The notes beneath the pieces are model-generated. The model worked only from the letters and a program-made list of their open reading frames with translations, did no database searches and was not told the origin of the DNA. A stretch of DNA of 62,834 nucleotides, filler included. It is 22 parts of 22 records of this genome, joined end to end, with 100 filler letters (N's around TTAATTAATTAA, not from the genome) between each part and the next. Parts side by side here need not be neighbours in the genome. Positions count along the whole stretch, not along the records: positions 38,980 to 43,162 come from SRR16133337_58732; 21 more parts are not named here. One strand, 5' to 3'. The position numbers were made by a program, and so were the translations under genes. The stretch's first letter is position 1, and every line of letters starts with the position of its first letter. Positions 10,154 through 62,834 of the stretch are shown here, piece after piece.

Positions 10154-11323
10154 TTAAATGCTCGTGATATTCATCCGTCCAAGATTGTGGAAACCAAGGC
10201 GTAGAGCCTGTTCCACTTTAAGGGAAGGGTCCTCCTTACGCGGTTCTTGTCCAGAAAAACGCGCGTACCACTGTAAAAATGTTTCTTGAGATGCCCAAGC
10301 TCCTCGTTCAAGAATACGCCGCACACTACAGCCTTGTAAATATGCAGTGGAACTCCAAACCGAACGGCCACTATGAGCCTTAAATTTTTTATCAATGCCA
10401 GCATTGTGCATTTCTTTTAAAATAATTTTGGAGATACGTTCTCGTGACAAGTCAGATGTTTGACCAGTCTTTGAAAGCGGTAAAATTAACAATGAAAAAT
10501 CGCCTTCTTTTCTGAAATTATGAGTGCGCGAAAGGTATTCACGAACCAAATGAGGTGTGGAGGTGTTCCACTCATTTTCAAACTTAACCGCACAGATTTG
10601 GATGATTGGTCCATAATCAGTTTTCGAGGAGCGCCAAGTTTTACCTCTGAAACGGCGAATAGTTAATTTTAATGAACTTTGTTCTGAAAATAATGTGACA
10701 GACTCAAAATGAATTTCGTGTGGACCACCCGCACGCCCCAATAGATCTGCATTTAGTGAAACAGTCAAAGAACTACGCAACTCATTTTCAGAGAGCTGTG
10801 TGAAATCCCCTTTGCGATGTAGGTGGTTCCACATCAAGGAGGGGTCCCATAATTCTGTTGATTTTGGAAAAACAGGCTTGTTGCGTCTGGTTGCTTCCAA
10901 AATTAATTTATGTAACTTTTGGGAGTTTAGCATTTTTCCCAGAAATGACCACATATCCAAAGTGGATTGTGCACTAGATGCAGTTGAACCTACATTAGAA
11001 CGTTCTATGAGAAAAGCTGTAGCTTCAGGGCTTTGAAAATCGAATAAGCAGCATGATTTTCGTCTGGAGAAATTGTACCAATTTTTCCATTGGGTGCCAT
11101 AACTTGAAAACGTGGATTTGGCCCGTGCTTGGATAACAAGGCTCGCAAACCCGTGTGAAATGCCTTGGTAAGCGAGGAGGAGCCTGACAGTTGGCAACAG
11201 ACTGTCACCCAAGGTGGGGTGTTGGCAAGCACATAATATTGAGGATTCGTGGACTGAAAAATCGGAATCGAGGGCATTAAGAGAGGAAAGTCTACCAACA
11301 AAGACACAAACAAGGGCCACCAT
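10154..11323 (-). CDS. DIRS tyrosine recombinase (with N-terminal SAM-like region); true start uncertain
   Basis: RAKSTFSSYGTQWKNW N-terminal motif; catalytic-type residues LLGR, GKT, AHSGRS (HxxR), GAWAS, TFLQWY. Confidence 0.88.
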   Translation of the reverse strand: MVALVCVFVGRLSSLNALDSDFSVHESSILCACQHPTLGDSLLPTVRLLLAYQGISHGFASLVIQARAKSTFSSYGTQWKNWYNFSRRKSCCLFDFQSPEATAFLIERSNVGSTASSAQSTLDMWSFLGKMLNSQKLHKLILEATRRNKPVFPKSTELWDPSLMWNHLHRKGDFTQLSENELRSSLTVSLNADLLGRAGGPHEIHFESVTLFSEQSSLKLTIRRFRGKTWRSSKTDYGPIIQICAVKFENEWNTSTPHLVREYLSRTHNFRKEGDFSLLILPLSKTGQTSDLSRERISKIILKEMHNAGIDKKFKAHSGRSVWSSTAYLQGCSVRRILERGAWASQETFLQWYARFSGQEPRKEDPSLKVEQALRLGFHNLGRMNITSI

Positions 11324-13140
11324 GGCCGAGAAGGCCAGATGGGAACCAAAACGGTAGTGAGATAGACTTCTTCATCAAGAATACGTTTAAAAACGTCATG
11401 TAAAACGTAAAAAGGAGGATTTATATACGGATTCGAGAAAACACACCACGAAAAATCTGTTGAAAATGCATTTACGTGGAGGGCCCCAGGTGAAGGCGAA
11501 AAAGAAACAAAGTGTTTTACTTTTGCATTTGTTTCTGACGCAAAAAGATCAACATCAAAAGGGCCAAATTTTTCCTCAATGGCAGTGAAAAAAATTTCTT
11601 TCAGCTCCCAATCACCTGGTGAGTGAAAAACACGAGACAGAGCATCAGCCTCTGCATTATCACTAGAGGATATATACTCGGCCTGTAAGGAAATATTGCG
11701 TGAAATGCAAAATTTCCACAATGCGTAGGAAAGTGAATTGAGGGCCTTGATCCTCCCACCTTGTTTCCTAATGTATGACAAACTTGTAGAATTGTCAACT
11801 TTGTGAAGCCATACGCAATTTTTAATATCATGTTGTTCCGCAAAAGCTTGAACAACGCGCTTTGCTGCCAAAAGTTCTAAATGATTTATATGCAAAACAG
11901 CCTCCTCACGGGACCAATAATCTCTTAATTGGTTGTTCCTAGAATCTGGCGAAAAAAGGAACACCCCATAACCCCAAGGAGATGCATCTGAAGAAGTTAT
12001 AACAGATGGTGACTCCTGCTCCAGAGAAACTGATGCAATTTCACTAATGTTTTCACGAAAATATTGCAGCTCGCAAACCACGTCCCGAGGTGGGGACAAA
12101 ACATCATCGTAGTCAAAACCTCGACTAACATGATTGCGTACAAAAAATGCCAGAGCATTAGAGTAAAATCGATAATTTTCAATACTCAAATAATTCGATC
12201 TAAAAATTGCTAAAACTCGCGCGAAATCACGCAAAGTTGCATAATTTTGTGAAATTTTATCCAAAAGCGCATCCGACTCCAACGAAATCGATAAAATACG
12301 TTGGGGTGAAGGAGAAAATGTCATTGCAATGGAGTTCACTTGTGTACCCAAAAAAGTGACCTCATTTGTTGGTACAAATTCACATTTCTCAATGGAAAGA
12401 GCCACTTTGCAAGCATTAAAAGTAGCAACCACAAAAAGCGCATGCGCGAGACACAAATTAAATGAGGATGCCAAAACTACACCGTCATCGTAAAAAAAAC
12501 ATATGCGAAGAAGAAACTCTCGCCAAAACTTCACAAAAACTTTCACCAAACTGTGAAGTGCCCAAGGTGCAATATTAAGGCCAAATGGCATGCAGGTAAA
12601 ACGCCAAAAGGCACGCAAAAAATAAATTACCAAATAGTTTCGAGAATTTTCATGGATTCCTACTTGCCAAAACGCATTTTTCAGGTCGAGTTTTATGAAA
12701 AAATCACCCTTGCGAACAATTCGCGCAAGATCACGCAAATCTTCAGATTTGAAATGTGGAGCATGTAGGAATTTGTTCAATGGTTTGAAATTGACTACGG
12801 GGCGGATGCCACCAGTAGATTTTGGAACTTCAAAAAGATGTGCAACAAAACAAAGTGAAATTTCATTATGAGGAACTCTTTGCAAAACTCCCAACTGAAT
12901 CATTTCATGTAATTCACGTTTGAGATCCTTACTATATCCCTTACTCCCTCGCAAAATGGAAATTCGCGCTTTGAGGGACTGAAAAGGCTTTTTTATGAAA
13001 AAACTAGATAATTTTATGCCCGACTGAGAAAACATACCCTTTTGGAGTAGAGAGGACGTGTCCAACAGGATCTGCAGACCTACGCTCTGGGTTAGGCATT
13101 GCGGCTCGAACGTCCGGAGGTACGGAGCGAAGGAGATCAT
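11005..13140 (-). CDS. DIRS pol: reverse transcriptase + RNase H + Dam-like methyltransferase domain
   Basis: FEVPKSTGGIRPVVNFKPLN, KLDLKNAFWQ, MPFGLNIAP, FYDD, FLG; RNase H SDASPWGYG, HINHLELLA, DNSTSLSYIRKQGG, NAEADALSR; MT-like DVDLFAS...INPPF...VPIWPSRPWWP. Confidence 0.93.
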   Translation of the reverse strand: MISFAPYLRTFEPQCLTQSVGLQILLDTSSLLQKGMFSQSGIKLSSFFIKKPFQSLKARISILRGSKGYSKDLKRELHEMIQLGVLQRVPHNEISLCFVAHLFEVPKSTGGIRPVVNFKPLNKFLHAPHFKSEDLRDLARIVRKGDFFIKLDLKNAFWQVGIHENSRNYLVIYFLRAFWRFTCMPFGLNIAPWALHSLVKVFVKFWREFLLRICFFYDDGVVLASSFNLCLAHALFVVATFNACKVALSIEKCEFVPTNEVTFLGTQVNSIAMTFSPSPQRILSISLESDALLDKISQNYATLRDFARVLAIFRSNYLSIENYRFYSNALAFFVRNHVSRGFDYDDVLSPPRDVVCELQYFRENISEIASVSLEQESPSVITSSDASPWGYGVFLFSPDSRNNQLRDYWSREEAVLHINHLELLAAKRVVQAFAEQHDIKNCVWLHKVDNSTSLSYIRKQGGRIKALNSLSYALWKFCISRNISLQAEYISSSDNAEADALSRVFHSPGDWELKEIFFTAIEEKFGPFDVDLFASETNAKVKHFVSFSPSPGALHVNAFSTDFSWCVFSNPYINPPFYVLHDVFKRILDEEVYLTTVLVPIWPSRPWWPLFVSLLVDFPLLMPSIPIFQSTNPQYYVLANTPPWVTVCCQLSGSSSLTKAFHTGLRALLSKHGPNPRFQVMAPNGKIGTISPDENHAAYSIFKALKLQLFS

Positions 13141-13316
13141 GCGGCAGAGTCTTACAGTCTAAAGAACAGACACAAAACTGGTTAGAGCTGGTGGTTCATA
13201 AGCAACTTTGTGAAAAAAACGCAAAATTTCAACTCGCAAAAAAGGGTGTAAGTCGAACAAAAAAGCCAAATCAAAGAGAAAATGCTCACCTGAGATTCGA
13301 ACGGTATTCGATGAAA

Positions 13317-21339: not shown

Positions 21340-22026
21340 ATGGCGAAAACTATAAAAGTTACTGCTTCCGAACTTTACAACGAACTTGTTGACAGTTTTA
21401 AAATCAAAGAAAAAATTGGTAGTGTCGAAATTAAATTAGGAAATATAACCGCTAAATATAACGGAAAAGATGCAATTGGTGATTTACTTCAAGAATGGCT
21501 TGGTAAATGGATGAAAAGCAAAAATTATTACTTCATAACTAAAGTAAATACACAAGAATTTCCAGACTTTTTACTTTCCGAAAGTGACACAAAAGACTTT
21601 TTGGAATTGAAAACTTTTAATGCAAATGCAAGTCCTACTTTTGATATTGCTAATTTTGATTCTTACTGTACTTCACTTTTAACAATTCCAGAGAGAATTG
21701 AAGCAGATTATTTGGTTTTCAGTTACAAAATGGAAAATTCTGAACTTTCAATAGATAATGTTTGGTTGAAAAAAGTGTGGGAGATATCAAGTCCATCAGG
21801 ACAAGACCCTATAAAATTACAAGTTAAAAGAAATCAAATTTATAATATTCGACCTTGTACTTGGTATTCAAATAGATTGAAATTTCACCCATTTACCAAT
21901 AAAAATGATTTTTTAAATGCAATTTCTGAAACTCATAAAGACTATCCTCAATGCGACCAATATAAAAAAGATTGGTTGAAAATAGTATCTGACAAATATT
22001 TTGAAAACACAGGAGTTAAACTATAG
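21340..22026 (+). CDS. Type II restriction endonuclease, NgoBV/NlaIV-like family
   Basis: DAIGDLLQEW, TQEFPDFLL...LELKTFN..ASPTFDIANF (PD-(D/E)xK), YNIRP; convergent with a C5 methyltransferase. Confidence 0.85.
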   Translation: MAKTIKVTASELYNELVDSFKIKEKIGSVEIKLGNITAKYNGKDAIGDLLQEWLGKWMKSKNYYFITKVNTQEFPDFLLSESDTKDFLELKTFNANASPTFDIANFDSYCTSLLTIPERIEADYLVFSYKMENSELSIDNVWLKKVWEISSPSGQDPIKLQVKRNQIYNIRPCTWYSNRLKFHPFTNKNDFLNAISETHKDYPQCDQYKKDWLKIVSDKYFENTGVKL

Positions 22027-23392
22027 CTTCTGCATTTTCTAATTTTGAGTTTTTTAATTCTTTAGGTTTAGTTACAATATCTAAAATCCTTTCTGAAATT
22101 GCTTTTAAAACAGGAACCACAACTGTATTTCCTAATAAATCGTAGGCAAAATTAGTTTTGACAGGAATTTCGTAACTATCAGGATAACCAAAAATTCTTA
22201 ATCCTTCCCTAATTGTTAATTTTCTAACTCCTTTTCCATCAATTACAACTATTTTACTCATATCAGTTGCCACAAGAGTTGGTGCAATATCATTTGGATT
22301 TAAGATTTTATTTATTTCAAAACTTAATTTTCCTGTTACAATATTATATCCTTTAGATTTTGTTTCATCATAAACACGGGAAGTAACAACACCATTTTCT
22401 AAAACCTCTTTCACCAATTTTTTAGGGTGTTCAAATCTTAAATAACCTTTATCCACTAAATCTTCTAACATTCCTTTTAAATCATAACTTTCAAACAAAT
22501 CATTTGTAGGTGCAAAAGTTTGTATTTGTTTTAATGTTAAAGGCATTCCATCCATCCAATCAATACCAATTTCAATTGCCCAATGTTTTTGCCTACGTAC
22601 TTTAAATAGTTTGTTTAACAATCTAATCTGCTCTTTTGTGCATTCTCCTTTTATCCCTATATCCCAACTATGAATATTGTTTTCACCTCCTCTTTTATCT
22701 TTTATAGACTTTCCATATAGTTCTTCAACTGTGAAATGGGAAAGTAATTTTTTAGTAAAATACGTATTCATTGTTTCCTTTCCTTTTTCTAAAACATCCT
22801 TTAAAACTCTAAAAGTAGGTGCGAAATTTTCCAATGAAATCTTATTCTTTTTTGTACCAACAATAAAAATTCTTTTTCGTGATTGAGGAACTCCAAAATT
22901 AACGGAATCTAAAACTTCCCAAGAAACTTTATAATTTAATTTTTCTTCTAGTTTATATAAAATTGTCTTTAAGGTTCTACCTATTTTATCCGTTTTATTT
23001 TCTAAATCGTGCTTAACCAAACCTTCAACATTTTCAAGAATAAAGCCTTGTGGTTTTTTATGTCTTAAAATTCTCTCAACCTCAAAAAATAAAGTGCCTC
23101 TTGTATCTGCAAAACCATTTCTTTTTCCTCCTGCACTAAATGGTTGACAAGGAAATCCACCGAAAAGAAAGTCAAAATCCGGAATATCTTCATTTTTTAA
23201 TTGAAAAATATCGCCAATAAAATGATGATGATGATGATTATGCTTTAAAGTTTTAACTGCATAAGGTTTAATTTCGGAAGTTAAAACGCATTCTGTTTCA
23301 ATTCCTCTTTCTTCACAAGCCTGCTCAAAGCCAATACGAATTCCACCAAGTCCAGCAAATAAATCTATAAATTTCAATTTTTTATTCACCAT
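22016..23392 (-). CDS. dcm: DNA (cytosine-5)-methyltransferase of the type II R-M system (likely start MVNKKLKF at 23392)
   Basis: Motif I FIDLFAGLGG, motif IV GGFPCQPFS, motif VI ENVEGL, motif VIII PQSRKRIF, C-terminal LGNTVVVP. Confidence 0.95.
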   Translation of the reverse strand: MVNKKLKFIDLFAGLGGIRIGFEQACEERGIETECVLTSEIKPYAVKTLKHNHHHHHFIGDIFQLKNEDIPDFDFLFGGFPCQPFSAGGKRNGFADTRGTLFFEVERILRHKKPQGFILENVEGLVKHDLENKTDKIGRTLKTILYKLEEKLNYKVSWEVLDSVNFGVPQSRKRIFIVGTKKNKISLENFAPTFRVLKDVLEKGKETMNTYFTKKLLSHFTVEELYGKSIKDKRGGENNIHSWDIGIKGECTKEQIRLLNKLFKVRRQKHWAIEIGIDWMDGMPLTLKQIQTFAPTNDLFESYDLKGMLEDLVDKGYLRFEHPKKLVKEVLENGVVTSRVYDETKSKGYNIVTGKLSFEINKILNPNDIAPTLVATDMSKIVVIDGKGVRKLTIREGLRIFGYPDSYEIPVKTNFAYDLLGNTVVVPVLKAISERILDIVTKPKELKNSKLENAEAIV

Positions 23393-23663
23393 TCTTATTT
23401 TTATATTCAACATTTGGTTCAGCAACAAGATTTAAATTTGATTTAAAGTCTTCTATTTCAAATTTATCACAACCAATAACAGAAAGACATTGTAAAAAGA
23501 AAGTAGCACTAAAAGTTCCTCTACTTATTTTACTCGTAATGCTTGATTGAGTTTCATTTAACCCTTGTTCGTTTAACAAGAAAACTAAATCAGAAGTTGA
23601 AATACCTCTCTTTACTAATTCAGACTTTAAAAGTCGTTTTACCTTATCGTTTGAATAAATCAT
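23382..23663 (-). CDS. DUF6471-like small HTH-type protein upstream of, and overlapping, the methylase
   Basis: KRLLKSELVKRGISTSDLVFLLNEQGLNETQSSITSKISRGTFSATFFLQCL pattern; its stop overlaps the methylase start. Confidence 0.7.
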   Translation of the reverse strand: MIYSNDKVKRLLKSELVKRGISTSDLVFLLNEQGLNETQSSITSKISRGTFSATFFLQCLSVIGCDKFEIEDFKSNLNLVAEPNVEYKNKNGE

Positions 23664-23807: not shown

Positions 23808-24164
23808 NNNNNNNNNNNNNNNNNNNNNNNNNNNNNNNNNNNNNNNNNNNNTTAATTAATTAANNNNNNNNNNNNNNNNNNNNNNNNNNNNNNNNNNNNN
23901 NNNNNNNATTATGCCCACAAAAATGTTTACGTAGGGTATGGGTGTGGGCCAAAAATTAGAATTTTGTGTCAACATAAATAAGGGGTGGTCCTCCTTTACT
24001 TATTTGTAAACCTCGTTTTTGTACGTTGGTTAACATGAGCCTTCTTTAGTCCCCAAATTTTCGTACATGTTAAATACAGAGCACTCTCATCAGCAATTTT
24101 GTTTATTTCCCCACACACACCACTCCCACCCCAACCCTTCCACCTTCACACCCTTTTTTTGTAC

Positions 24165-25244
24165 CTGGATTGTTCGCCCTTATTCTGACAACAACATAAT
24201 GACCGGGATGTAGTAGAACGGTATCAGTTCTTGGTGGATTCACAAGATTCCTTGTGGGTTCTTGCTTTTCATTCCACGATGCTTGTGAACAAGGAATATT
24301 ATGACAAAGAATATCAGTTGAACTTCCGAATTTTTCTTGTTTAGCATCCCACTCGCCATATCCCTCAGCAACAACCCAAAATGAATGTCCATGGAAATGA
24401 ATTGGGTGGAGGGCGTTCGCTGTTTGTACAGATTCTGATTTCTACAAACATAAAACCAGCACATGAAAGTCTGGGGGGGAAACCACACAAAACTAAAATA
24501 ATATTTGAAGGTTTTTATTTTCTTATCGGAAATATAATTTGCATATATGGCGGTGTGGTTGTAAAAAAATATGTGTATACACCTTTATAAGGTCAAATAA
24601 TTCAAGAAATTCGTGGCATACAACGTGAACATACAGCCAAAAAATTGAAATTGAGTAAGGAGCCAATGTCGCGAAAGTAAGGAATTGCATACAGCTCGTA
24701 GACCTAGAAAATTATATAAAAGTATTAATATTGAGTTCCATATGTTTGTACATTAATAGTTAGGAGTTAGGATAGAAAAGGGTGGGTGGATCACATATAT
24801 GTTTTGGCAGAAAGAGGTAAGCATTCAAAAAAAATTGAGAGAAAGGGATAGCAAATTTTCAAAAGGAATTTCATTCTCTGTTGTTTTTAAGAACACCGAA
24901 CATATTCATTTGGTGATAAAAATTTGCTGGATGCCCAAATGAAAAGTTGACTCGCCGTACCTTGTTGTAAAACACAAATTCAACACTAGAACCATATTCG
25001 ACTTCGTAAACTGTTGTACAAACACATCCAAAATCAGCACAATAATCTGCCGAAGCGCATTCAAATTCTGGTGGAACGCCGTCAAAAAGTAAATTTCCGC
25101 CTGTTCTTGTAAATTGTGCTCTGTTCACTTGTCTTGGGTCCCTGAAATTGAGCCATATTGTCTGATCAACTTCTTGTGGAACTTGTTCCAAACGATTTTC
25201 AAGCTCAATTTTCCTTCCATCACTTAGAGTTGCATATTTAGGAT
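24165..25244 (-). CDS. Partial spliced multicopper oxidase (laccase / L-ascorbate oxidase family, third cupredoxin domain); exons 25244-24961 and 24441-24165
   Basis: Phase-0 GT-AG join gives CVCTTVYEVEYGSSVEFVFYNK|KSESVQTANALHPIHFHGHSFWVV...NPPRTDTVLLHPGHYVVVRIRANNPG. Contains the HPxHxHGH copper motif and the NNPG that precedes WxxHCH. Confidence 0.9.
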
Positions 25245-26105
25245 CTAAACATTATGCATAAATTGTTATATTTATTTGTTCAATACTAATCTTCAGAACG
25301 TCAAAAATAAAAGGACCAGGAATTGCTCCAAGGTTAAGTCACCCAAAACGCTATTGGAATTAAATAAAAATATAGTAGTAGAAAAATATATGAAATGTGA
25401 AACAACAAAAAAAAACACAGAGAAAAACTTCACAGAATTATAACGCAAATCAAATTTACGGAAACTCGCATTTGAAACTTTTTGGATTTTTTTACCCTCC
25501 CGTCTGCCCATGTTTCTTTACGAACAATTTCCTTTGAGTCTCTTGTGGGAAATATTGATGTTTCATTCAAACAATGCGTGGAGAATTGACTTTAAGAGTT
25601 TTGGGTGGAAAAACCACACTTCATTTCATAAGGAAAATTCAGCTCAGAAATCCTCGAACAAAAATGGTGCCAAATACGGTCTCGTTAATACAATATGGTT
25701 ATTTTAACATAAGAATTAGACATCCAAAATACTTCTACAGTTTTAGGACACATTTAACGCGATGGTGCGCTCTCAGCATAGAAAATAGAAATACATTCGC
25801 GAAGACAACGATTGCTTTTTATTGTAGTGTTTTGTTGTAAGTGAGTTACTAAGTTTTGCACAACTGGAAGAAAAGGTTAAAAAACCAAAATTCAAAATTT
25901 GGCTTGTAGAGTGGAAGTGAGTGGCGTCAGGAGGTAGCAGCCTTTTGAGTTGGAAGTGTAGCGGGCTCGGCTGTGACAGCAAGGTTACCACTGTTGGGTC
26001 CCTCTNNNNNNNNNNNNNNNNNNNNNNNNNNNNNNNNNNNNNNNNNNNNTTAATTAATTAANNNNNNNNNNNNNNNNNNNNNNNNNNNNNNNNNNNNNNN
26101 NNNNN

Positions 26106-38879: not shown

Positions 38880-39004
38880 NNNNNNNNNNNNNNNNNNNNN
38901 NNNNNNNNNNNNNNNNNNNNNNNTTAATTAATTAANNNNNNNNNNNNNNNNNNNNNNNNNNNNNNNNNNNNNNNNNNNNCAATGGTTTGTTGGGAGAATT
39001 TTAG

Positions 39005-42000
39005 TCTTTTTCGCGCAGCACTTCATGGCAGAGCACTAGAGGGACGTGAGCATTTTGAAAAAACTTTGGCATTTGTACACGCTGTACGAAAGGAGAGACA
39101 CAAAGAGGAACGAAGAAGAGACAGAGACATGGTGATGCAAGAGAAGAGACGTGAAGAAGAACAAAGAAAAATCTACAACGAGGAGGAACGAAGGAGCAAA
39201 TTTGAGGGAGAACACATGGAACGGATACTGAGAGAGGCAGGTGTTATATTGATTATGTAGGGAGCGGAGAGTAGTGGGTGCCACGCCTTTTTTTTGATAA
39301 TTCCTGATGCATTATTGGCATTGAACGGAAAACCAAAATACAGTTACTACCACTTCTTACACCACAAACGTGAATGGGCAGTCAGTGTATTTACTTTGTG
39401 TGTGGGTGGAGTGGGTGTTGGGGTGGGGGGGAGTGAATTAGGAATGCATGGGCATTGAAATGGCATACAAACATGTGTTATCATTACCAACATTGTTTTC
39501 TCGTGCTGCTGTATTTTTAACCACCGTACAATATTGTTTTTTAAAAAAAAATCAGTGAATGGTACTGTACAAAATCTGGTTATGTTTCGTCATCAGGCTG
39601 AAGCGTTGCAGAAAGAAAGGCAAGCCATGTTGGGATTAAATAGGCGAATCAACAAGGAAGATTTCGATTATTCATTTGAAAAGTATGGTTTTCATCAAAA
39701 CAATATAAATCATTCACACTTTTAATTCGTACCCATATTTTTTTTTAAAGTAGCAATGATTTAGTTGCGATGACATGTCAGTTTGATGCTACTTTCGCGT
39801 ATCTGGACAAGTTCTTGAATTTTGTAGTCCACTTGAGAACTAACAGTTCCTTTGATGTTATGTACCAGTACTTCTTTTATCTTCCTTACTGATTCATATC
39901 ATCTTCACAACTTACAGGATGTTCACGTCTTTTGTTACCAGAGCAACGCTCAAATATTCATGTCATTGTTGAATTTGAACGTTTGTTTTTGAAGCTTTTA
40001 AATTTCACAATATGTACTCTGGCAATTCTTTAGTCTATTTCGTACTGCATTGCATGGTCGAGCATTGGAAAAGAGCAAACGACGCGGTACAAAAGACACA
40101 CAGAATTTCGATACATTTGAGGAGACGCATGAGCACAGTGCTGCATATAGTCAATATGTAGACACTAGCCAGTTTTTGGGATATTCATTTAAACGAGCTA
40201 AGGATACCAGCGCAGGTTTGCACGATATGTTTGCTGGTGACGAAAAGAAACATGCCATGTGCGAACAGAGTGAAATGTGGTACGGGTACTGAAAGTTTAC
40301 ACTCATTCACAAAACAAGCGGTTTCTGTTTATTTCCAATCTCCTATAGATGAATTGATGACGCCCCAAGCATTTATTTCATGTAACCTTAGGATTGTTTG
40401 TTTTTTTTTGTATTCCAACTGTATCTTGTGTGTATTTCTGGTAAAAAACGCATTTGTGTTCGGAAGGTTTTCAAACAGAGAAAGAGAGAGAGAGAGAAAG
40501 TTTTCACTGATCTCGTGTATTGGGTCTTTGAGCGAGATTTTCTTTTCATTATAACGGATCTTTGTTTCCATTCAAACAACTATCGCGATCTTGGACAATC
40601 ACTGCATGTTTAGTCGTGTTATTCTTACTTCTATTTGCATTAAGGTCATACAAAAATGGGAGTTGGTTTACGCAATGCACTTGCCCAGGGTACTAGAAGG
40701 CACGTGGTATCTAGGGCATTGCTGTGAAGTTCTGTACACATTTAAATATTCTGTATTGGTGGGTTACGGGTTGGCAGGAGTTTTTAGAGTTGATGTTGAT
40801 AGTTTAGATTTTTAAAGTAGCTAAATAACTTTTTTTCTTATTCTAAGCAAATGTTATGAAATGTAGGTAGAGATACAATGTCAGGAAGTATGTCGAAATT
40901 AGTTTATGTTTCCTGTGTATGTTTATTGACTAGACAGTTGAGGTTAGACTTTTAAAAAAATATGTTTTAGCTTGTTTCGTGCAGCTCTTCATGGCAAAGC
41001 TCTTGATATCATTGACGGTGAATACACGACAGAACGACCAGAGAGCCGTTGTTCACGTTCTCCAAAACAATCGCGTGAGGATGTTCCCATTTGGCTCAAA
41101 GAACAAAGGGAAAGGGATCGTCACAGGGATTACCGACGGATGTCAAGAAGTATGTCCAGAAGTACATCTGGAGAGTGGAGTAGGAGCAGGAGTAGGAGCA
41201 GGAGCAGAGTTAGATCCAGAAGTCGATCTCGTTCTCAATACCGTAGAGGTGTAGATAGATATAGTTCTCCAAGTGGTTCTGATGACAAACGATATAAAAA
41301 AGGAAAAAGTCGAAATAAAAAACGATGTAAAAGACGCCTGTCATCAGATTCAAGTGATTTGAGCGATTCGGATTCGAGTGATTCGAGTGACTCGAGCAGT
41401 TCTAGTGAATCAAATTATGGGAGCAAGAGGCGTAAACGTAAAAGGTCAAGAATCCCACACCATTTTGAGTATGTAGCGCGCAAGTTATTGACGTTTGTTA
41501 TATTATGTAGTAGCAAACATTTAATTCTCCGCACAATTAATTCTCCGCACAATTAACAGCTAAATTTTTGCGTAATATTTTTTGCTTATCCTTGTGGCCA
41601 AGTCATGGCGATTAAACGATTATGTTGAACGAAACTGTACAGCATACACAAATGATATTTATTTGGCATTTTATCTCGTAATTGAAATATAGTTTGTGTT
41701 AATTAGTATCTTATTGTGTATTTTTGAGTTGGAAAGAATGTATTCGTGGATATACAGTTTGGGAGCAATATGTGATTGTTATGGTACAGAGCTCTGTTAT
41801 GTTTTTACAAGCGTAACAACAACACGGTAATTGGGTTTCTAATTTAAGAGAGTGGGTCTTCTTTTGTATGATAATCTTATTTGTAGCATTTTTCGCGTTG
41901 CTCTTCTTGGCCGAGCACTTGAAAAACATCATGACGTTCCTCCCCCACCTCCTCAAGATCAATATTACGGCGGTGGTGATGAATGGGGTGAGGATGGCGG

Positions 42001-42812
42001 TGGTGATGAATGGGAAGAGGATGAAGATGACGATGGTGGAGGTTGGGGAGACGAGGAAGAATGGGATGAGGAAGAAAAATGTGCTGACAAAGAAGCTGAA
42101 TACGAATCCAAACAGGACGATAGCAACTTCTTATTGCAAATGTATGGTCGGAATATTACATCTTTACTACTTCTGATTTTTCGGAACAATAGCAATGTTT
42201 AAAACAGTCATTTGCAGAAAATCATGTTAAAATTAATTATGATGAAAATGACTTACGGGTGTATGTCGTAATCTGAATGAGAAGATTACAAGAAGTTAAA
42301 AGGGTGCAACTGGCAATAGTTTTGAAACATTGCAAAGGGTTATGTTTATTTTTCCAGATGCATTTGTTTCAATCGTCAAGCGCTTGCCTCGAACATCATC
42401 TCACAGCCTCAGTCCAAAGCTCTGTCGTGAATATCAGCATTGGGAGATTTTTACAATAGGTGTTTTCATCATTGTGTAATCTATGCTTTTCTAGCATTTT
42501 TCTCGCTGCTCTCCATGGTCGAGCGCTTGATAAACGTCATGGCACCATTGAGAAATTTGACGAAGCGAAACTTCAAGAATTTTGTTATAGCGGGGACGAC
42601 TATAGCGGGCATGACTATAGCGACGGTAGCGACGGTAGCGCTGCTGGTTACACTCAAACCGCGCTATTCTGTGGCGACGATAGCGTTGATAGCGAGGATA
42701 GTAACTATAACGGCGGTGACGACGATAGGTACATGCGTTACGATGGTGCCAGAGTTGGTTGGGGTGGAGAAAAGTCAAAATATGTAGAAAGCAGTCCTGT
42801 TGGCATTGGAAT
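39005..42812 (+). CDS. Eukaryotic gene or array with five related exons (39005-39256, 40034-40279, 40971-41468, 41887-42141, 42495-42812) sharing an N-terminal LFRAALHGRALE motif; function unknown
   Basis: Each copy is directly preceded by TAG in phase 2 and has a phase-2 GTA donor; lengths 252/246/498/255/318 nt. Confidence 0.65.
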
Positions 42813-43381
42813 GTATGAATTTAATACGTGCAATTCATTACTTATGTAGTTATTTCCATTGTCTTCGAAAACTTTTTCAGGGATACAACAAACCTGTTTT
42901 TGTCAACATTCAACACAAACATATCGTTTATGTTAATGGATTTTTCGTCAATGTGTCTATTTCAGGCATTTTCCGCCTTGTAATTTCTCAGGCAGTATTC
43001 GTTTTGTGCGGGAATCTTTTAAAAACTCCAGATGAAATAAATCTTTTATAGTGGAGTTGGGTGGGGTGGTAGGAGGGAGGGGTGGAAGCAAAATCTTTAT
43101 CGCAAAATCGATTTCATTTTGCGTCTAAATTGAGTGCTGTTGTTTAATTTATCAAAATTAGGNNNNNNNNNNNNNNNNNNNNNNNNNNNNNNNNNNNNNN
43201 NNNNNNTTAATTAATTAANNNNNNNNNNNNNNNNNNNNNNNNNNNNNNNNNNNNNNNNNNNNGTTCTTACATCAAATTTTCCTGTACCACCCTCTCAAAA
43301 ACCACAAATTTCTTACATAAAGTCATGAAAAAAAGTCTACGATTACAATTCAAAAGCTTTGAAAAAATTAAATGTTTTATT

Positions 43382-43756
43382 TTATGGAACAGCCCCAAGA
43401 TCGCAATACCAGTAATAGCAACTGTAACAAAATGTCCTACTCCGAGCATGTCGAGATTGGTCATTTAGAATCTTAACGCATCCATCACAAATACACTCGT
43501 CACAAACTGATTCACCACAAAAATAACAATCTTTGCAAAAATTTTCTTCACACTCCACACATTTCATATAGCGCACTGTACCGTCCAAACATTTTGGTGC
43601 ATGTACAACATTTTTGCATTCATCGTCACAGTCTCCGCACCGTGTCACGAAAACACCACATTCAGGACACAAATCGAGAAATGACGAAACGAGTTTGTTG
43701 AGACATGTGGGAAGTGCTGCCAGCCGTTTTAGAACTTCTAATTCTGTTTCGTCCAT
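43382..43756 (-). CDS. Small intronless Cys-rich protein with a possible F-box-like N-terminus (start at MDETELEV)
   Basis: LAALPTCLNKLVSSFLD followed by multiple CxxC pairs (CPEC, CGDC, CVEC, CKDC, CYFC, CDEC, CDGC, CYSC). Confidence 0.5.
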   Translation of the reverse strand: MDETELEVLKRLAALPTCLNKLVSSFLDLCPECGVFVTRCGDCDDECKNVVHAPKCLDGTVRYMKCVECEENFCKDCYFCGESVCDECICDGCVKILNDQSRHARSRTFCYSCYYWYCDLGAVP

Positions 43757-44612
43757 TTTCGAAATTTGGTTTGTGTTGGAGACGTGGTTTGTAGTGAAAT
43801 TGGAGGCTCTGACTAAAAAAGCTGTATGAAAGTCCAAAGTCTGAGCTTCGGACTTTTGTGTAAAAATATATTGGAAATGTTTATAATTCTTAAACATAAG
43901 ATGCGTATACTTAATTTTTGGGTTTTTGGATATGGTTGTAGCAATCCAATGAGCAAAAATCACCTCACAGCAAATCGTCCAAAATTTTGTACAATTCTCA
44001 CTCGCGAGAATTTTGAATTTATAATTTCGATCTATGAAAAACTCCACCCCAAAAAGTTGAAAATTATCATTTTGCTTTTTTTAGCATTTATCGTTTCGTG
44101 CGTTGGTTTAATTTTTGTCGTCTGTTTGTCCGTCCGTCCAATCATTTTTCCGCCTCGACTTCCCAGAAAACGCTATTGATCTTGAAATTACAAATTGAAC
44201 CCTAATAGCAGAGATGGGTGTAGACCGGAAGTGTAGGAGACCGCCTTTTAGGTGGGTGGTGTGGTGAGCTCGGCCGGTAGGTGAGGCTGTGGAGGGATTG
44301 TTGCGGGATCAGCATTTCTGGGCCTCTTTTCGAAGCGAAACGAATACATTGTATTTATCCGCTGTAAAAATAACGTTAGTGATCACGGAATACGAATTTA
44401 GTAACACAGTAAGTCACCAGAATTGTGAAAATTTAGGATAGGGATTCAAAGCAGAAGAGTAAATATTTTGCTGAAATTTAACCGCTTGATACTGGCCTCG
44501 TTCGGTAAGAACTTCATTTTACGATCGCACATCAGTGCACGAATGTTATTTTCTTTTAAATGCTTCGATGTGATTCAGCATATGCATTATTGTATTTTTC
44601 TTTTTTGCACAG

Positions 44613-47554: not shown

Positions 47555-50195
47555 NNNNNNNNNNNNNNNNNNNNNNNNNNNNNNNNNNNNNNNNNNNNTT
47601 AATTAATTAANNNNNNNNNNNNNNNNNNNNNNNNNNNNNNNNNNNNNNNNNNNNTCCTGCAAATTTGTCTTTTCGGGAAATGGAAACGGACCTCCCATAA
47701 ACGCTGTCCCGATAAGTTTAAGGAAATAGAAGAATTCTTGAAGTACTGTAACCACCCCTCCACACACACACACCTCTTGAAAATTTATACACTTGAACAA
47801 TTGTGAGTAGGTGGGTGTGTTTGTGTGGGTGGGTGTGTTTGTGTGTGGTGGGGGTGGGGGTGACCCTATAAAACTTTTAAACTTTCACTACTTATGCATC
47901 AACTTATGTGCTGACACACATTTTGACAGGAATTAAAAAATAAAAATGCTACTTGACATCGCATTATCCTAACAATTGTATTGTACAACTTGTATTGCTA
48001 GAACAATTTTTCACAAACACACCGAAATGTGAAACTTCGTCACCATCAACATCATACGGAAACATGACGCGTAAATTCACGAAAAGTCCCAGTGCTGTTT
48101 ATCAATTAGATATTTTAATCGTATGTAGATAGGGTGATTATTTTCTTTTTAATGTAGCTTGGGGGCACTATTCGTTTTTGAAAAGACGCTTCTTTTCAAC
48201 CCACAATTTTCAAAATGGCAAAAAAATAGTACACTTTGACATGCGAAATTTAGGAAGTGTAAGCGAAAAATATGGTTGTTAAAATGAAAACACAATATTC
48301 AAAATATAAGTTTTAAAAGAAAACCAAAGAATCTATTTTTTTTATGTGACACATATGAAAAAAAGGCGTAAATATTTAAGTTTTAAGAGTTTTGAAAAGT
48401 ACTAGTTAAATAATTTAACTTATATAAAAAAAATCCAAAAACAGTGTATTGTTCACTTTAACTTGAATTTCACAAATATTTTGAGCTAAATGCATTTCAA
48501 AATATTTTGGCGAAAAAGAACTCTGATATTTACTCAAAAATATAAAATTTCAGGATATGTTCGACTGATTTTGAGTTCAAAATCCTTAATTTATATATTT
48601 ATTTGCATGCGAAATATTCTGCTTGCGTATTTATAATTTCACGACCTACAACACAATTTCACATAGAAAATTGAAATTGAGTATAAAAATGCTTCAAAAA
48701 ATTTCGTGTGAACTAAAATATTCTGTGTCATTTGTTACATATGGGTAACAATTTTTAGCATCTAAAACGTTCTCTACAACTCAGTAAATATTACATACTG
48801 TACATAAACTCCCTTATAATTGTTACATACAAGTCAAAAATTTGTTGAAGATTTTTGTACATAACAAATATTTTTTCAGTAACTCATGATACACATGATA
48901 TGAGATGTGAAAATCGAAAATCAAGAAATTGAACACATTCGTTGACATGACATTGTGTGTGGGTGTGTGTTTGCATGTAAATAGGAATATTACAACAAGA
49001 ACAACGCAAAATTTCGAGAGTCCAAGGAAGCAGCGGATCAAGCTAAAGCATTTAAGAGAATGATCGCCCAATACAATAAAAAAGAACGCGATAAACTTGC
49101 AAAAAAGAATAAAGAAACCCTTTCATATTCTCTTGGTAAATACACTAAAATGAAATGTCTGGAAAGTTTTGAAACTGCATTTCTTTCAGGTCCATTTTTC
49201 CAGAGATGTTTGCTTGTAGTACTCACATATGCATGCTTGAGGAAAATAAATAAAAATTACATTTTCTGGCACTACATATTTTTCAAACATACAAAATCCC
49301 AAACTTCAAAAAATCTTGCAGTTTTGACTTTGAATGAAACTATATTTTTTCATAGTAAAAGAGACAAGCAATATCAGTCATGCACAATAAAAAACTTTTA
49401 CATACTTCATGACATAACTCTCAACCCACCACCAAATTCGCTACATCAAAAATTTGTACCTTAAACAACCCGGGTAAACGTTGCTCCCTTTTTCAGCGCT
49501 TGGAGATAAGTTTTTGTTGGGTTAAAGGATACTAAATATTTAGTTTTTGGGGGCCCTTCACCCAGAATTTCCTTTTCACCAAAGAAAACCCCTAGGTGTA
49601 GCAAAATATTAAATTTTTGGGGTCAAAATGTCAAAATGCGAAACAAAAAATTGACGATATATATATTTTATATATTTAATATATCTCACGTGTAGTGCCA
49701 AAAATGCATTCGTGACCNNNNNNNNNNNNNNNNNNNNNNNNNNNNNNNNNNNNNNNNNNNNTTAATTAATTAANNNNNNNNNNNNNNNNNNNNNNNNNNN
49801 NNNNNNNNNNNNNNNNNGTATTGCAGGGAGTGAAGTGAGTAAGTGTTGTATGTTTGTTCAACAAATGAAATATCGAAAATTGTACATTTACAAAACAAGT
49901 ATCGAAAATCGTGTGTCATTTTCGATTTCTAGGCCAGGAAACGCTGTACTTTAAAAAAAAACTAAAACACAAAGGATTTACGAACGAAAAAAAATAAAAT
50001 ATGTATAGGTAAGATAAAATTTTTACATCAGCAAATTGATTCAAATTCGTTGGTAGACAGGTAAAGATGTGTAAATATACATGCACAAATTGAGTACAAT
50101 GATCATGAACATTTCCTCATGGCGAAGAAAAATTCTTCACAAATCCGTAATTATATGTTTCCAATTAATATTCTTGGAAGTGTTATATTTGATAG

Positions 50196-57280: not shown

Positions 57281-59921
57281 AAGTAATCTCCACCCAAAAA
57301 CAAGTTGTGGTAAGAAGCAAATCGCAACTGAGCGAAAACCAACTGAGCGAAAGACAACTGCGCCAAAAGCAACACGGAAAAAGCAACAGCACAGCACAAC
57401 TGATCAAAAAGCAACATAGCAAATTCCGACATAAACAAAGCACCACCGGAACACAGCAAAAAGCCACAACGCAAAATTGCAACTGTACACAGCAAATGGC
57501 CACACTGTAAATGGCAACATGGCGTAACTCAACTGAGCGAAAAGCAACATAAAAATCAGAACAAATTTCACTACACAGTAATAAAGCAGCACCGCGCGTA
57601 GCAAACAAAACTTGGCAAGAACGACTTAGCACTATAGCAACACATGCAATATCGAGATAGACAAAGCACCACCGCAACACAGCAAATATCAACAAGGCAA
57701 AAGGCGACACCACAAACAACAACTGTGCACATAACAGCTAAGCAAATAGCAAATAGGCAAAAATCAACACAGAAAAGAGCAACAAAGAACATCGAAACTG
57801 CACAAAAAGCGAAACAGCAAACAAAGCAACAAAACAACACTGCACATAGCAACAAACAAAAAACAAAAGAACAACAAAACAAAGTACAAAAAAGGTAAAA
57901 CAGCACCTCAAAAAGCAACTGCATATAACAACACAACAAAAAGCACCGCCACAAAGAGGTAACGAGTACAAAGCAAAAGGTGGATGGCAAATGGCACATA
58001 CTAACTCCGCAAGACATAACGCCTCAAATAATCGCTAAAGAAAGCATTTCAAGAGCAAATATGAAACAATCACCAGGCATACCATTTTCATCTCAAATAT
58101 AGAAAAAAATAAACACACTCCGCTGTAAAACTGGAGTATTTTGCGCTGAACAAAACCAGGGAGCATAGCTAGTCAGCAAGTACGTGAGCAGTGTAGAGAC
58201 ACAAAATTTGTCGCAAAAAGATTTCAAGACTAGAAGCGTGGTGTCCTGAGCAGCGGAGAAGGAAGTACTGAGAAACACTTAGACAAGTCAAACAGCACAC
58301 GACCTACATGGACATAGCCGCGGCCAAAAGCAACACTGCAAAAAAGCAAATGCGCACAACACAACTGAGCAAAAGCAACATGGTAATAGCAACATGGTAA
58401 ATAGCAACAAAGCACATCGCAACTGAGAAAAAAGCAACATTCCCGCACAGCAAGATAATAACACCACAGATAGACAAATTATAGCAACATATCAAATGTC
58501 GATATATACATAGCACCACAACACAACAACATATCAAGAAGCAAATATAAACACCGCCAATAGCAACTGTGCACCGAGCGACTGAGCAAAAATTACATGA
58601 GCAAAAAGCACCTGGGCAAAAAGCCACCGAGCAAATAGCAACACTGAAAATATCAACATAGCACATCGGAACACAGCTACATACCAATGAGCAAAATAAC
58701 AAATGAAATACCAAGAAGATAATGCCGAAACACCACAAAAAGCGACTGTCCATATCAACACAGCAAAAAAGCAACGCCACAAACAGTTAAACAGTACCAA
58801 GCAAAAGTAATAAAGAGCAAGTCGCACACAGAAACTCCAAAAAGAGCAACGCCTCAAATAACAAAAACAGCAACATCAAAACTGCTACGGGGAATAACAA
58901 ACGAAAAAAGCACAACAACGTGCGCAAGCGTCTTACTGTACACAACAGAAATAATTACAGTGAGAAAACTGTAAGACAAAACCAGCAATGCGCTCACTAA
59001 GACACCATGAAAGTAACACAATAACTTACCGGTGTAGATAACCCTGAGCTGAGGACTCCAAAGCAAAAAAACGGTGAATGAAACAAATAAAACAACGAAC
59101 CACGCTACTACAAAACTTATGCAAAACAAACGTCGCAAATAATTATTACAGCAACTAGCAACAAAACAAAGCAAACATAGCGAATAGCAACATGGCGAAC
59201 AGCAACATCGCAAACAACGACGCAACGAGCAACATCACATGTAGCAACACGACAAATTGCAACACAGCAAGGACACTAGCAACATAGCAAAGAGTACAAA
59301 GCAACACCACAACCCCGCAAGTAGCAACTCCTTAAAAACAAAAGCGCAGGAGCAAAAATAAACGCTACTAAAACACTGTAAATGTAAAACACTGGACGCA
59401 AAACCGCACGTAACAACACAGCAAGAGGCAAAACTGTAATAACAAAACCACCACACCAACTCTGCCATAGCATAGTCACAAACGGAACACATTAAAGGCA
59501 AACCGTATTAAACAGCACTACAATGATCCAAACCGCTGCAGCAATCCACAAAGCAAACTGTAAAAGCGCACCGCGAAAAGTCAAACAGCTTTAAAAAAAA
59601 ATCTGTACGATTAAGCCAAAGCCTAAAACGCGAAAAATCAAAAGTCAAAAGACGTAAACAAGAAAACGTCGTACCGCAAAACGAACATCATAAAACTGCC
59701 ATACAACTAGAAACACATCACAATAACACACGGTTGGTCAGCTTCAATGTGAAAACCGCAATGCAATACATCAAAAAAAGGGGGTGTATATAAAAGCAAA
59801 AACGACTGAAGGCGAAAACAAGTGCCAGTGAATAATAAAAACTGAAAAGAGCAAGCTAAAAGTTCAACTGCAAACGGAGCCACCAGAAAATTTCAATTTT
59901 CGAAGGGGGTGGTTTGTTGAA
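57281..59921 (+). repeat. Strand-asymmetric A/C-rich degenerate repeat region
   Basis: Recurrent AACTGAGC(G/A)AA, AGCAACA(T/C) and AAAGCACCACC words throughout; very few T on the + strand. Confidence 0.65.
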
Positions 59922-62834
59922 NNNNNNNNNNNNNNNNNNNNNNNNNNNNNNNNNNNNNNNNNNNNTTAATTAATTAANNNNNNNNNNNNNNNNNNNNNNN
60001 NNNNNNNNNNNNNNNNNNNNNTTTTCAAAGTTTGGTGTTTGAAAATTAAATGAGCAGCAAGTTGTTAAGAAGTCAAACAAACATGAAAGGCGTGTGGGCC
60101 CTTACATCACTACTGGAGCTTGTTATGTAGGCAATAAAAGTTTTTGGAGATTGGAAAAATTTTGTTTTTTGGATTTAGGTGTACTGTAATGCCTTTCCAG
60201 AAGTGCTATATGTTTTATAACAAACCCAGCCTTTGCAATACAATTTTGAAGTAAAAATGACACCAAAAAAATATTTTCGTTTATTTTTATGTCAAATTTG
60301 GGTAAAATATACAATTTGTTCACTTAATATCCAATAATATAAACATGCAAAACATGGTGTTAGGTAAGACACCCAAACAAAAACTTTCATTTTTATGACA
60401 AATTAGGGTGTATAGATATTTTATTAATTTTTCGAAATCACATAACAATTGAAGAAAATAGAATATTGAAAGACGCGACGTGATGCAGTGAATTGGAGAA
60501 CAAGTACTTTTCGGATGGACTCGCAAAATATATCCAGCTAGTGTGGCGTCTTATTTTACCCTGTGTTCAAATTGCAAGACACGTGGGGGTTATCAAAACT
60601 TTAATTTGCGGAGGCAATGTGACTTTACATTGTAGATACCTGTAAACGTTATATATCTTTATTTTATTTCCGAAATTTGTCTGTTTCTTTTTATGCACTT
60701 TGCAGGGGGAATAATCATATATACTCCAACAATAAAAAAACATAACCCTGCAACGTAAAATGTTGTCTAATTCCATGGTACTGAATGTTTTTGCCCACGT
60801 TCTTTCGAAAAATATTTTTTGGTGGCATGATTCGATGAAGTGAAGCGGAATGGCATCTGTGAATAAACCAAATGTAATACATGTGAAAGTTATGTTCTGG
60901 TGACGCCATTTCAAACTTTTATTGATTGGACAAAACCTCCACGTAATATTTTGTGCGTTTCTACAAAAATGTGGTGACGAATTTAGGAACTTGTTTTTTA
61001 CAGAATGTATTCCATTTAAATTGATTGTAAGAGCTCAAAATATTATGAGTTCAATAACAAATGTTTTTGTTTGTCAACCATTTTGAATTGGGCATAAATA
61101 CATTGAAAGTGATGAGGCACCTGAAGGTATAATCCACAAAATTGAAATATATATATATTCGCTTTTGTAATACATTGATGTTTTGTATATTAATTTCAGA
61201 GGTTTAATATTCAATGCTTTCCAAGTCAGCGGATTGGCATCTCTTTTGACTTGTATAATTTCGAGTATAATGACACGTGAAATTGCAACTTTTATTGCAA
61301 CAATTTTGGCTATTCTTGGAATTCGATTTGTATTTAAACGCGTATATTCAAGATAAACTATGTACATGTGTCTTTTGAATCTGGACTGCATACAACGAGG
61401 TATCGTACTGCACACGCACAGCTGTAAACATGGTAAGTATAGTTCTTGATCCTTGAAAGATTAATAAGGATAATAAAAAACAAAAAGTAAAATTTGGCGT
61501 TCTACAACGGTACGATAGTTTTTGTGTTCGCGAAATATCTAACCTCATTCAATGGACTTTAGTGCCAAAAGTCAGAGAAAGTGGTTGTGTATGACAATAA
61601 TGTAGGTTTGCAATATTCTTTGATACTTCATAAATTGAGTTTTTCAAAAAAACATTATTTGGTGAGGATGGAAATTGCCCTACAATTATATATTTTAAAT
61701 GTATCAATGCGATATTGGTTTTATACGATAACTTATCAAATATGGATTTTGTCTTGTCTCATGTGATCACATATATTTGAAAAATCTAATTATGATTTTG
61801 TGCGTCAATTCCTTCTGTAAAATCTAATTATGATTTTGAGTTTTTCACAATCGCGTCTTTTAGTACTCTAAATATGAGCAACTAAAAAACACACGTGACG
61901 TTTTGAAGTAATTCTGACCATTTTTTAAAGAGTAATTGAATTATCAGTGGAAACTTCAATTTAAATGCAGTTCATTTTTTTATTACATTCAATGAATTTG
62001 CCTGTCGGGGCATGTGAAAGTTCCATTTTTTGCAATTTTCTACCCAAAAAAGAATTTGTGACCAAAGAAAATCTTTTGTAAAAAATATAGAATTTTATGA
62101 CGGAATTTCAAAATGAGCCACCCAAAGGGCTTACACGCGCCAGCCAAAAAGGTAGTTTTTGTTATAATCCATGATATGTGAATCTAATCGATTTCGTTGA
62201 TTTACTGCAGTTTTAGAACATACGGTGACAAAATATGATGATTTTTATTAATTTTTTAACAAATTAATCAGCAATAACACATTTTGGATATTACCACTCC
62301 TGATTTTGAATTTGTCAGTGGTGCAGGTTAAGATTATAATAATATCAATTGAGAATATGTTCCTTCCTGCAATACTTTAGTGTACATCGTTTTTCTAGTT
62401 ATGAAATCTGCGCAAATAAAACTCGTTTGAACTCTTTCAGAAAGTAAACGCCATGTAGGGAAGGGTAATGTATTTTATTTTTGGTAATCGCTGTACATCA
62501 ATAATTGTTGGGCACTGCCCATTAAAGGATGGTGAAAAAATCATAGATTGAATACTTCAATCAGAGATAAGGATGGCGATAATTTATAGATTGTATGTCG
62601 TTGCATCGTAGAGATAATCGGTGTCGTAATTCCTATGTTTTTGATCCGACACGTTTACAAATACCACAAAATGGTTTGGGACACGGAACGTCATTCTCGA
62701 GTTTAGGGCAGTAAAATGTATCATGGGCTGAATCATACGACAGGGGGGGGGAAGAAAGTGCGATGCACAAAGAACAACATCGTAAAATGTGTGGCGTATT
62801 GAAAATGAGCAATAAGTTCGCTTGGGGATTCACG

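Follow-up and report, generated by a model that had tools for sequence, protein, structure and literature searches.

Five tandemly duplicated exons with a conserved head and unrelated tails, candidate alternative C-terminal tails of an AGC-type kinase

Results

A tandem array of five internal exons

The DNA analysed here (the window) is a stretch of 62,834 bases in which 22 unrelated contigs of 2.0-4.5 kb each are joined by spacers of the form N44-TTAATTAATTAA-N44. Our subject is an array of five exon-like units that lies entirely within one of these contigs, a eukaryotic one (38980-43162, plus strand; 4,183 bp, 39% G+C), with such a spacer on either side (38880-38979 and 43163-43262). All five units are on the plus strand, and each opens with a similar short head before continuing into a tail of its own. 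Unit 1 (39005-39256; acceptor TAG at 39002-39004, donor GTAGGG at 39257) has the head LFRAALHGRALE and an E/R/K-rich tail, in which 20 of 71 residues are lysine or arginine and 18 are aspartate or glutamate; its donor holds a TAG that becomes an in-frame stop if the intron is retained. Unit 2 (40034-40279; donor GTACGG at 40280) joins the head LFRTALHGRALE to a tail of mixed composition that carries two motifs of AGC-kinase tails. The head of unit 3 (40971-41468; donor GTATGT at 41469), LFRAALHGKALD, is followed by a run of arginine-serine (RS) dipeptides, a Ser/Asp run and a K/R cluster, with 41 serines and 34 arginines among 153 tail residues. Unit 4 (41887-42141; donor GTATGG at 42142) begins with IFRVALLGRALE and proceeds through a PPPPP run into an acidic, Gly/Trp-rich tail that holds 27-nucleotide repeats (repeat family D3). 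Unit 5 (42495-42812; donor GTATGA at 42813) has the head IFLAALHGRALD and a tail rich in Asp, Ser, Gly and Tyr. From first to last the units measure 252, 246, 498, 255 and 318 nucleotides (84, 82, 166, 85 and 106 codons), and the net charges of their tails are +2, -2, +25, -25 and -11.

A preliminary description of this DNA had placed the five heads at these positions, each directly after a TAG, and had called the tails unrelated. Both statements were confirmed: the frame is open throughout all five units, the tails differ sharply in composition, and BLASTP, applied to two of the ten unit pairs, aligned the head alone, namely the first 12 residues of units 1 and 2 and the first 15 of units 4 and 5 (E = 7e-06 and 5e-05 in the two pairs). 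The lengths divisible by three, the shared phase and the donors that had been proposed were found again as well, and in each unit the single in-phase GTAnG is the donor given above. This donor lies 0-28 codons before the stop of the open frame, which starts 8-15 codons before the acceptor; units 1 and 4 contain no other in-phase GT. A GTAnG within the last 31 codons of all five frames has a chance probability of about 1.8e-5, calculated from the GTAnG frequency of the contig and for a pattern picked post hoc. Open frames of 84 codons or more number 12 on the plus strand of the contig, whereas 200 shuffles gave 0.47 on average. A multicopper oxidase gene on another contig has splice sites of the same style (AAG/GTACGG, CAG/GTACAA and TTGTAG/, with the slash marking the exon boundary). 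Given the tight limits of the open frames, the lone in-phase donors, the likeness to the oxidase sites and the excess of open frames, we take the five units to be real internal, phase-symmetric exons. The introns between them are 777, 691, 418 and 353 nucleotides long, and all sites are GT-AG.

The head is conserved and the exons are old duplicates

Within the window the head belongs to these units. A degenerate pattern of acceptor plus head matched five times in the window and not once in 100 shuffles, and a DNA profile of the heads recovered these five copies alone (E = 1.6e-15 to 1.7e-13); the next match, at 49919-49969 on the minus strand (E = 0.017), was T-rich junk on inspection. The heads differ at 102 nucleotides in pairwise comparison, 26, 16 and 60 of them at codon positions 1, 2 and 3, and the differing codon pairs comprise 47 that are synonymous and 31 that are not. 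The earlier impression that the motif is conserved at the protein level despite many synonymous changes is borne out by the comparison of nonsynonymous (dN) and synonymous (dS) divergence that it had called for: dN is 0.08-0.30 and lies below dS, which is 0.37-2.0 in eight of ten pairs and too saturated to compute in the other two. The head is under purifying selection.

Similarity stops abruptly on either side, where identity falls to the random level. Ungapped identity is 72% across the head, 28% over the 36 nucleotides upstream, and 32% and 28% over the next two 36-nucleotide blocks downstream. Scored as a repeat family (D1), the head has five copies of 41 nucleotides including the acceptor, with 73-80% identity to the reference copy and spacings of 1029, 937, 916 and 608 nucleotides, and it is the sole repeat family common to all units. 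Homologous exons that stand head to tail with their splice sites retained are the pattern of tandem exon duplication; the five segments stem from an old tandem duplication of one exon, of which only the first 12 residues have been kept. The first base of the unit is a pyrimidine in all five (p about 0.03), so that the junction codon formed with a constant upstream exon would keep its meaning, a weak hint of alternative use.

The possibility that most of these duplicates are dead, with unit 2 alone in use and the others unexpressed relics, draws on the fact that one unit in five keeps the two tail motifs and on weak head-like relics at 42369-42386 and 42966-42980 that suggest decay of units. 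All five exons, however, keep an acceptor, an in-phase donor, an open frame of 82-166 codons in DNA of 39% G+C and a head whose dN is well below dS. Synonymous sites are at or near saturation, and unselected copies should therefore have lost frame, head and splice sites; we regard this explanation as quite improbable.

The units probably belong to a single gene, since in four of the five the frame offers no ATG from the upstream stop to the head, since the head is all that they share as a repeat, and since the start-like stretches in the spacers between units are unalike. This speaks against separate tandem genes, an alternative raised in the preliminary description, which are unlikely. Each tandem paralogue would have a separate start, on a short first exon lying in the spacer before the head exon. 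An ATG stretch that ends in a phase-matching GTA donor does occur in each of the four spacers, and two of these stretches are 101 nucleotides long; they share no sequence, however, and the identity upstream of the heads is no higher than stated above. If the units are kinase tails, moreover, a whole kinase gene cannot fit into 353-777 nucleotides. We give tandem paralogues very little credence.

Other features of the array contig

Three extra candidate exons had been listed in the preliminary description. By our direct reading of the phases, two of them (39556-39682 and 42358-42458) are out of phase with the unit donors; the third, 39753-39860, is phase-compatible only with its limits moved to 39751-39861 (plus strand). 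This possible extra exon, Y, is a weak candidate of 111 nucleotides in the phase of the units. It ends in AT/GTACCA (in-phase GTA donor at 39862) and lacks a head, and hydrophobic residues make up 50% of it; its open frame of 47 codons is of a size common by chance on the contig. An open stretch, X (39582-39682, plus strand), starts with the ATG at 39582 and ends in the phase-matching donor AAA/GTATGG. Used as an internal exon after unit 1, through the CAG acceptor at 39555, X meets a stop; it may serve as an alternative first exon or not be an exon. The idea that X is a decayed unit found no support, with no BLASTP alignment to unit 2.

Downstream of unit 5, a possible last exon with a poly(A) signal occupies 42966-43041 (plus strand), preceded by the acceptor-like TATTTCAG. 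Any unit donor joined to 42966 is followed by 22 further codons to a TGA at 43033-43035 and then directly by AATAAA at 43036-43041, so that, as read from these signals, 42966-43035 may be the last exon of the gene. Its first 15 nucleotides (42966-42980) are weakly head-like with a shift of one base (p about 0.02 before correction for 25 tests). The other weak relic, at 42369-42386 (plus strand) between units 4 and 5, is identical to the unit 5 head at 15 of 18 nucleotides and follows the acceptor-like TTTTTCCAG; it is out of frame and forms repeat family D20 (p about 0.025, not significant over 25 tests). The search for head relics in the spacers thus gave two at p about 0.02 among 25 tests, which is not significant.

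In the intron after unit 3, the segment 41521-41556 is a tandem direct duplication of a unit of about 14 nucleotides, with AATTCTCCGCACAA at 41523 and 41539, and was also scored as an overlapping palindrome in the repeat search (pairs I1, I21 and I22).

Searches for relatives of the array

Relatives of the array were sought in protein libraries, in prokaryotic and metagenome contig collections, and in Pfam, Rfam and the Protein Data Bank. In 596 billion bases of prokaryotic genome contigs, and likewise in the metagenome collection, the pattern of acceptor plus head never matched, and these collections therefore offer no overlapping contig with which to extend the array. Without the acceptor, the head pattern matched once at each of 37 metagenome loci, on contigs of 51-67% G+C and in bacterial proteins or non-coding frames, and once at each of 25 loci among the genome contigs, all in records titled as bacteria or archaea; we read both sets as chance.

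At the protein level, a word-indexed search of longer proteins returned 925 candidates for a profile of the five units, none at E <= 10, as well as 14 candidates for unit 2 and one for stretch X, with no match to either. An exhaustive profile search of 1.84 billion representatives gave four proteins at E <= 0.001, all of which score through internal tandem or TPR-like repeats of their own. One of them, P0001 (801 residues; E = 4.8e-08), has an N-terminal tandem repeat of 14 residues that resembles the second half of the head and the next residues of unit 3; this repeat was counted many times, and we take the match as chance. The search would have caught any protein that holds a unit: in a control with this profile at this library size, the five units reached 52-81 bits. 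No library protein therefore contains one. Pfam gave nothing near a cut-off for the five units and three other open frames, Rfam gave two matches on the array contig, both far below their gathering scores, and the head string had no match in the literature searched. The preliminary description had not recognised the motif as a known family; the profile search found no protein relative among the 1.84 billion representatives.

Unit 2 resembles the tail of AGC-type kinases

In a language-model search (Atlas features), the top 30 matches of unit 2 were all kinase-tail clusters, of which 17 belong to a Pkinase_C set and 13 to a set whose leading cluster bears the name 'G protein-coupled receptor kinase (fragment)'; the four matches shown scored 0.93-0.94. 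Alone, this result is weak. The tail of unit 2 also carries two motifs. FDTF, at residues 25-28 (40107-40118, plus strand), fits the form FDx[F/Y], to which we generalised the FDDY active-site-tether motif of PKA for testing; FLGYSF, at residues 47-52 (40173-40190, plus strand), fits the AGC hydrophobic motif FxxF/Y[S/T]F/Y. The available text of PMC3499706 gives this form of the hydrophobic motif and treats the motif pair as a hallmark of the tail. FLGYSF begins 22 residues after the start of FDTF, where AGC tails have a distance of about 20. Both motifs in the same order and spacing arose in 53 of 1,000,000 composition-matched shuffles of unit 2, and of the window's 240 open frames with 60 residues or more, only one had both.

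Their positions agree with those in a known tail. The PKA tail spans residues 300-350; its FDDY occupies 327-330, and its hydrophobic phenylalanines are Phe347 and Phe350 (PMC13167742, in the sections available). Counted from the start of the tail, the motifs stand at positions 25 and 47 in unit 2 and at 28 and 48 in PKA, which suggests that the start of the unit 2 exon coincides with the start of the kinase tail. Excerpts of PMC3499706 and PMC5342071 name the first segment of the AGC tail the C-lobe tether. The array contig starts 25 nucleotides before unit 1; catalytic exons would lie upstream, off the contig.

Several results weigh against a kinase tail. For unit 2, the Atlas recognition of 1969 is below the trust level of 2300, and the shared-feature counts of 159-174 straddle the mark of 170. 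Both motifs occur in one unit of five, and the other four have neither under the patterns used. The Pfam Pkinase_C family (PF00433; cut-off 20.9 bits) gave no match to any of the five units at E <= 10, in a search where HMMER filters drop most matches above E of about 0.1, so that a weak match may have been missed. Phmmer and hmmsearch comparisons with all Protein Data Bank chains likewise gave none at E <= 10 for unit 2, for its motif-bearing 40 residues or for the five-unit profile. By inspection of the translations, four of the five units have no PxxP in their first 24 residues, an element that PMC3499706, in the text available, names for the C-lobe tether of Akt. The window as a whole yielded no kinase-core motif, so the link to a kinase comes from unit 2 by itself. 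Compared with the AGC tail as a family (PF00433; PKA 300-350), the array is therefore alike in the motif pair of unit 2, its positions and the Pkinase_C clusters of the Atlas search, and unlike in that no unit matches the family or a known structure, four units are without both motifs and the contig has no kinase domain. We know of no AGC tail that starts like the head. AlphaFold2, run on unit 2 without an alignment, returned a mean predicted local distance difference test (pLDDT) score of 62 with the head not confident, and we draw no conclusion from it.

An array of alternative kinase tails is the favoured reading

We favour the reading that the contig is the 3' end of an AGC-type kinase gene with an array of alternative tail exons, and judge its chances to be about even. 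Within it, the assignment of unit 2 as an AGC-type kinase tail is the firmer element, which we hold to be quite probable. The catalytic exons would lie off the contig, upstream, and each unit would be one version of the C-terminal tail of the kinase. The head would form the first tail segment, the C-lobe tether, and would dock on the shared catalytic core. Unit 2 would be the classical tail, with active-site tether and hydrophobic motif, and the rest of the tail would have been replaced by disordered modules in unit 1 (E/R/K-rich), unit 3 (an RS domain and a basic cluster), unit 4 (acidic and Trp-rich) and unit 5 (Asp/Ser/Gly/Tyr-rich). Splicing would set one unit directly after the core, giving isoforms with different self-regulation and probably different localisation. 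On this account the head alone is conserved because every tail must dock on the same core. A kinase core uses one tail, which favours interchangeable exons; and the most canonical tail is unit 2 rather than unit 1, so that it would adjoin the core only if unit 1 is skipped, which again favours alternative use. If unit 2 is an AGC tail, alternative use of the form described, with a putative upstream core on which the heads would dock, seems to us rather likely; nested isoforms, discussed below, would be alternative use as well.

Interchangeable or mutually exclusive cassettes that attach disordered modules to a constant motif had been suggested in the preliminary description. The first part of that suggestion became our preferred reading, since unit 2 resembles a complete AGC tail; several of the usual signs of mutually exclusive exons did not appear. 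Validated exons of this kind are selected for similar length, and the prediction scheme described in the accessible part of PMC5740500 allows them to differ by no more than 20 residues, whereas the units differ by up to 84. The similarity between units is significant and confined to the first 12-15 residues. The same source (Hatje et al., PMC5740500), as far as its text was available, lists three features that enforce exclusion: U2/U12 incompatibility, a distance of less than 50 nucleotides from donor to branch point, and lengths not divisible by three. None of the three is present here. The introns of 353-777 nucleotides leave no steric block, all sites are GT-AG, and because all lengths are divisible by three, joint inclusion keeps the frame. 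As regards competing RNA structures, a fourth mechanism, the repeat search revealed no common intronic selector, docking or inverted-repeat system on the contig; a docking site could lie off the contig.

The same facts lend themselves to a constitutive repeat; units of one repeat protein had been an alternative in the preliminary description. A single mRNA would then take up every unit, and perhaps Y, and would encode about 520-560 residues of disordered sequence in which a short docking motif occurs five times. The copies would be set apart by basic, RS, acidic and Gly/Tyr-rich blocks, an arrangement found in many nuclear disordered proteins, and for one protein to combine an RS block with E/R/K and acidic blocks is nothing unusual. 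Lengths divisible by three and equal phases mean that serial inclusion keeps the frame, none of the three exclusion-enforcing features tested is present, and units of 82-166 residues that are similar over 12-15 residues are unlike the validated mutually exclusive exons in the text available from PMC5740500. If unit 2 is a kinase tail, however, a well-spaced tether and hydrophobic motif at least 84 residues away from the core make little sense, and four extra core-docking segments would have no obvious use and yet be under purifying selection. The exhaustive profile search, moreover, found no protein with repeated heads. We consider a constitutive repeat rather doubtful, but it is a serious rival.

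A set of nested isoforms would arise if the upstream donor picks one of the five acceptors and all units downstream of it are included, so that the first head docks and the rest are passengers. This fits the in-phase donor on every unit and the lack of an exclusion-enforcing feature, and any chosen head would still adjoin the core. Passenger heads, on the other hand, need no conservation in the isoforms that carry them, and we think nested isoforms improbable; otherwise they and the favoured array of alternative tails are inseparable by sequence alone.

Other contigs of the window

The ends of the array contig have no 14-mer in common with any other contig of the window. Bacterial and eukaryotic contigs are mixed in the window, so that context across a spacer is meaningless; the Helitron, the reverse-transcriptase element and the oxidase gene described below are eukaryotic. 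The contig directly before the array contig (35910-38879, minus strand) holds a Helitron-type element with Helitron_like_N and a PIF1-like helicase. A retroelement at 10157-13158 (minus strand) encodes a tyrosine recombinase (Phage_integrase, at its cut-off) together with a reverse transcriptase and a Dam-like methyltransferase domain, a domain combination that we take to fit DIRS-type elements. Bacterial restriction-modification genes are found at 21340-23431, where an NgoBV-type endonuclease (E = 1.4e-47) adjoins a C-5 cytosine methylase (E = 1.3e-81), and on a different contig at 26106-28832, where a type I restriction R subunit runs off the contig at either end. One further contig carries a bacterial radical-SAM enzyme that resembles lipoyl synthase.

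The multicopper oxidase gene whose splice sites are cited above is a fragment with introns at 23908-25400 (minus strand); its downstream exon matches Cu-oxidase_2, its upstream open frame had no Pfam match, and a G-rich run follows its second donor, inside the intron. An Atlas search with the oxidase exon led no further than 'Eukaryota', with clusters from arthropods, plants and molluscs. G-rich runs of the GTGGAGTKGGGTG type are enriched in the window, with seven matches at two mismatches or fewer against 1.07 expected, and lie at 39396-39437 (after unit 1), 43051-43095 (after the AATAAA at 43036), 24100-24150 (the oxidase intron) and on other contigs. The two on the array contig are not specific to this locus, given the similar runs on other contigs and in the oxidase intron. 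The contig 57281-59921 resembles low-complexity or satellite DNA: its AT skew is very strong (0.517 in 58001-60000), and its minus strand holds long open frames rich in Cys, Phe and Leu. An intronless open frame at 43385-44080 (minus strand) encodes 232 residues, the C-terminal half of them Cys-rich; Pfam gave no match to it at E <= 0.001.

Discussion

Tandem exon duplication, alternative C-terminal exons and AGC tails are each known already. A precedent within the kinases is PKC beta, in which, as described in the available portion of PMC3537621, the choice between V5 exons gives the beta I and beta II forms different C-terminal tails on one AGC kinase core. That case involves two exons, the upstream one with its own stop, after which the last exon is untranslated; the units of the array number five, differ greatly in length and composition, and reach their donors without a stop. 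Among the literature searched, as far as its text was available, several alternative tail exons in an AGC kinase were represented by the two exons of PKC beta and an AKT2 variant only.

Dscam and the human atlas of Hatje et al. (PMC5740500 and PMC9013439, in the parts available) offer another likeness, namely neighbouring duplicated exons in the same orientation and phase, with conserved GT-AG sites, as in all five units. Those exons are alike over their whole length and differ by at most 20 residues (PMC5740500, same limits), whereas in the array 12-15 residues align in units of 82-166 residues and no U12, short-intron, frame-breaking or selector feature was found. In the text available on them, the mu opioid receptor OPRM1, the DCLK kinases and an AKT2 variant without the hydrophobic motif share the design of a constant folded core with disordered tails selected by splicing; they belong to protein families other than that of the array. 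To our knowledge, their alternative exons are not mutual duplicates with a conserved head.

The AGC C-terminal tail controls its kinase in cis: it helps to close the active site, and the hydrophobic motif serves as a handle for upstream activators (PMC3499706 and PMC13167742, from the passages available). Five duplicated tail exons on one kinase, with an anchor of 12 residues conserved and four tails replaced by disordered modules, would be new if true. Should all exons be included instead, the locus would encode an ordinary orphan repeat protein.

In its strongest form, which we advance tentatively and think unlikely as a whole, the favoured reading holds that one kinase gene has at least five mutually exclusive tail exons, one of them a classical self-tethering AGC tail and four that keep only the head docking on the core. 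Those four units would then swap the active-site and N-lobe tethers for RS, acidic Trp-rich, E/R/K-rich or Asp/Ser/Gly/Tyr-rich segments, and the core would switch between forms regulated by the hydrophobic motif and 'tail-less' forms whose N-lobe pocket is free for partners, in different compartments. The exon cluster itself would be unusual, with a short conserved anchor and a remainder of free disordered sequence, and it would be a natural experiment that shows what the tail cannot do without (the head) and how much of the remainder is replaceable. AGC tails normally diversify between paralogous genes; here, if the reading is right, diversification would have come about through an exon array where other lineages used gene duplication.

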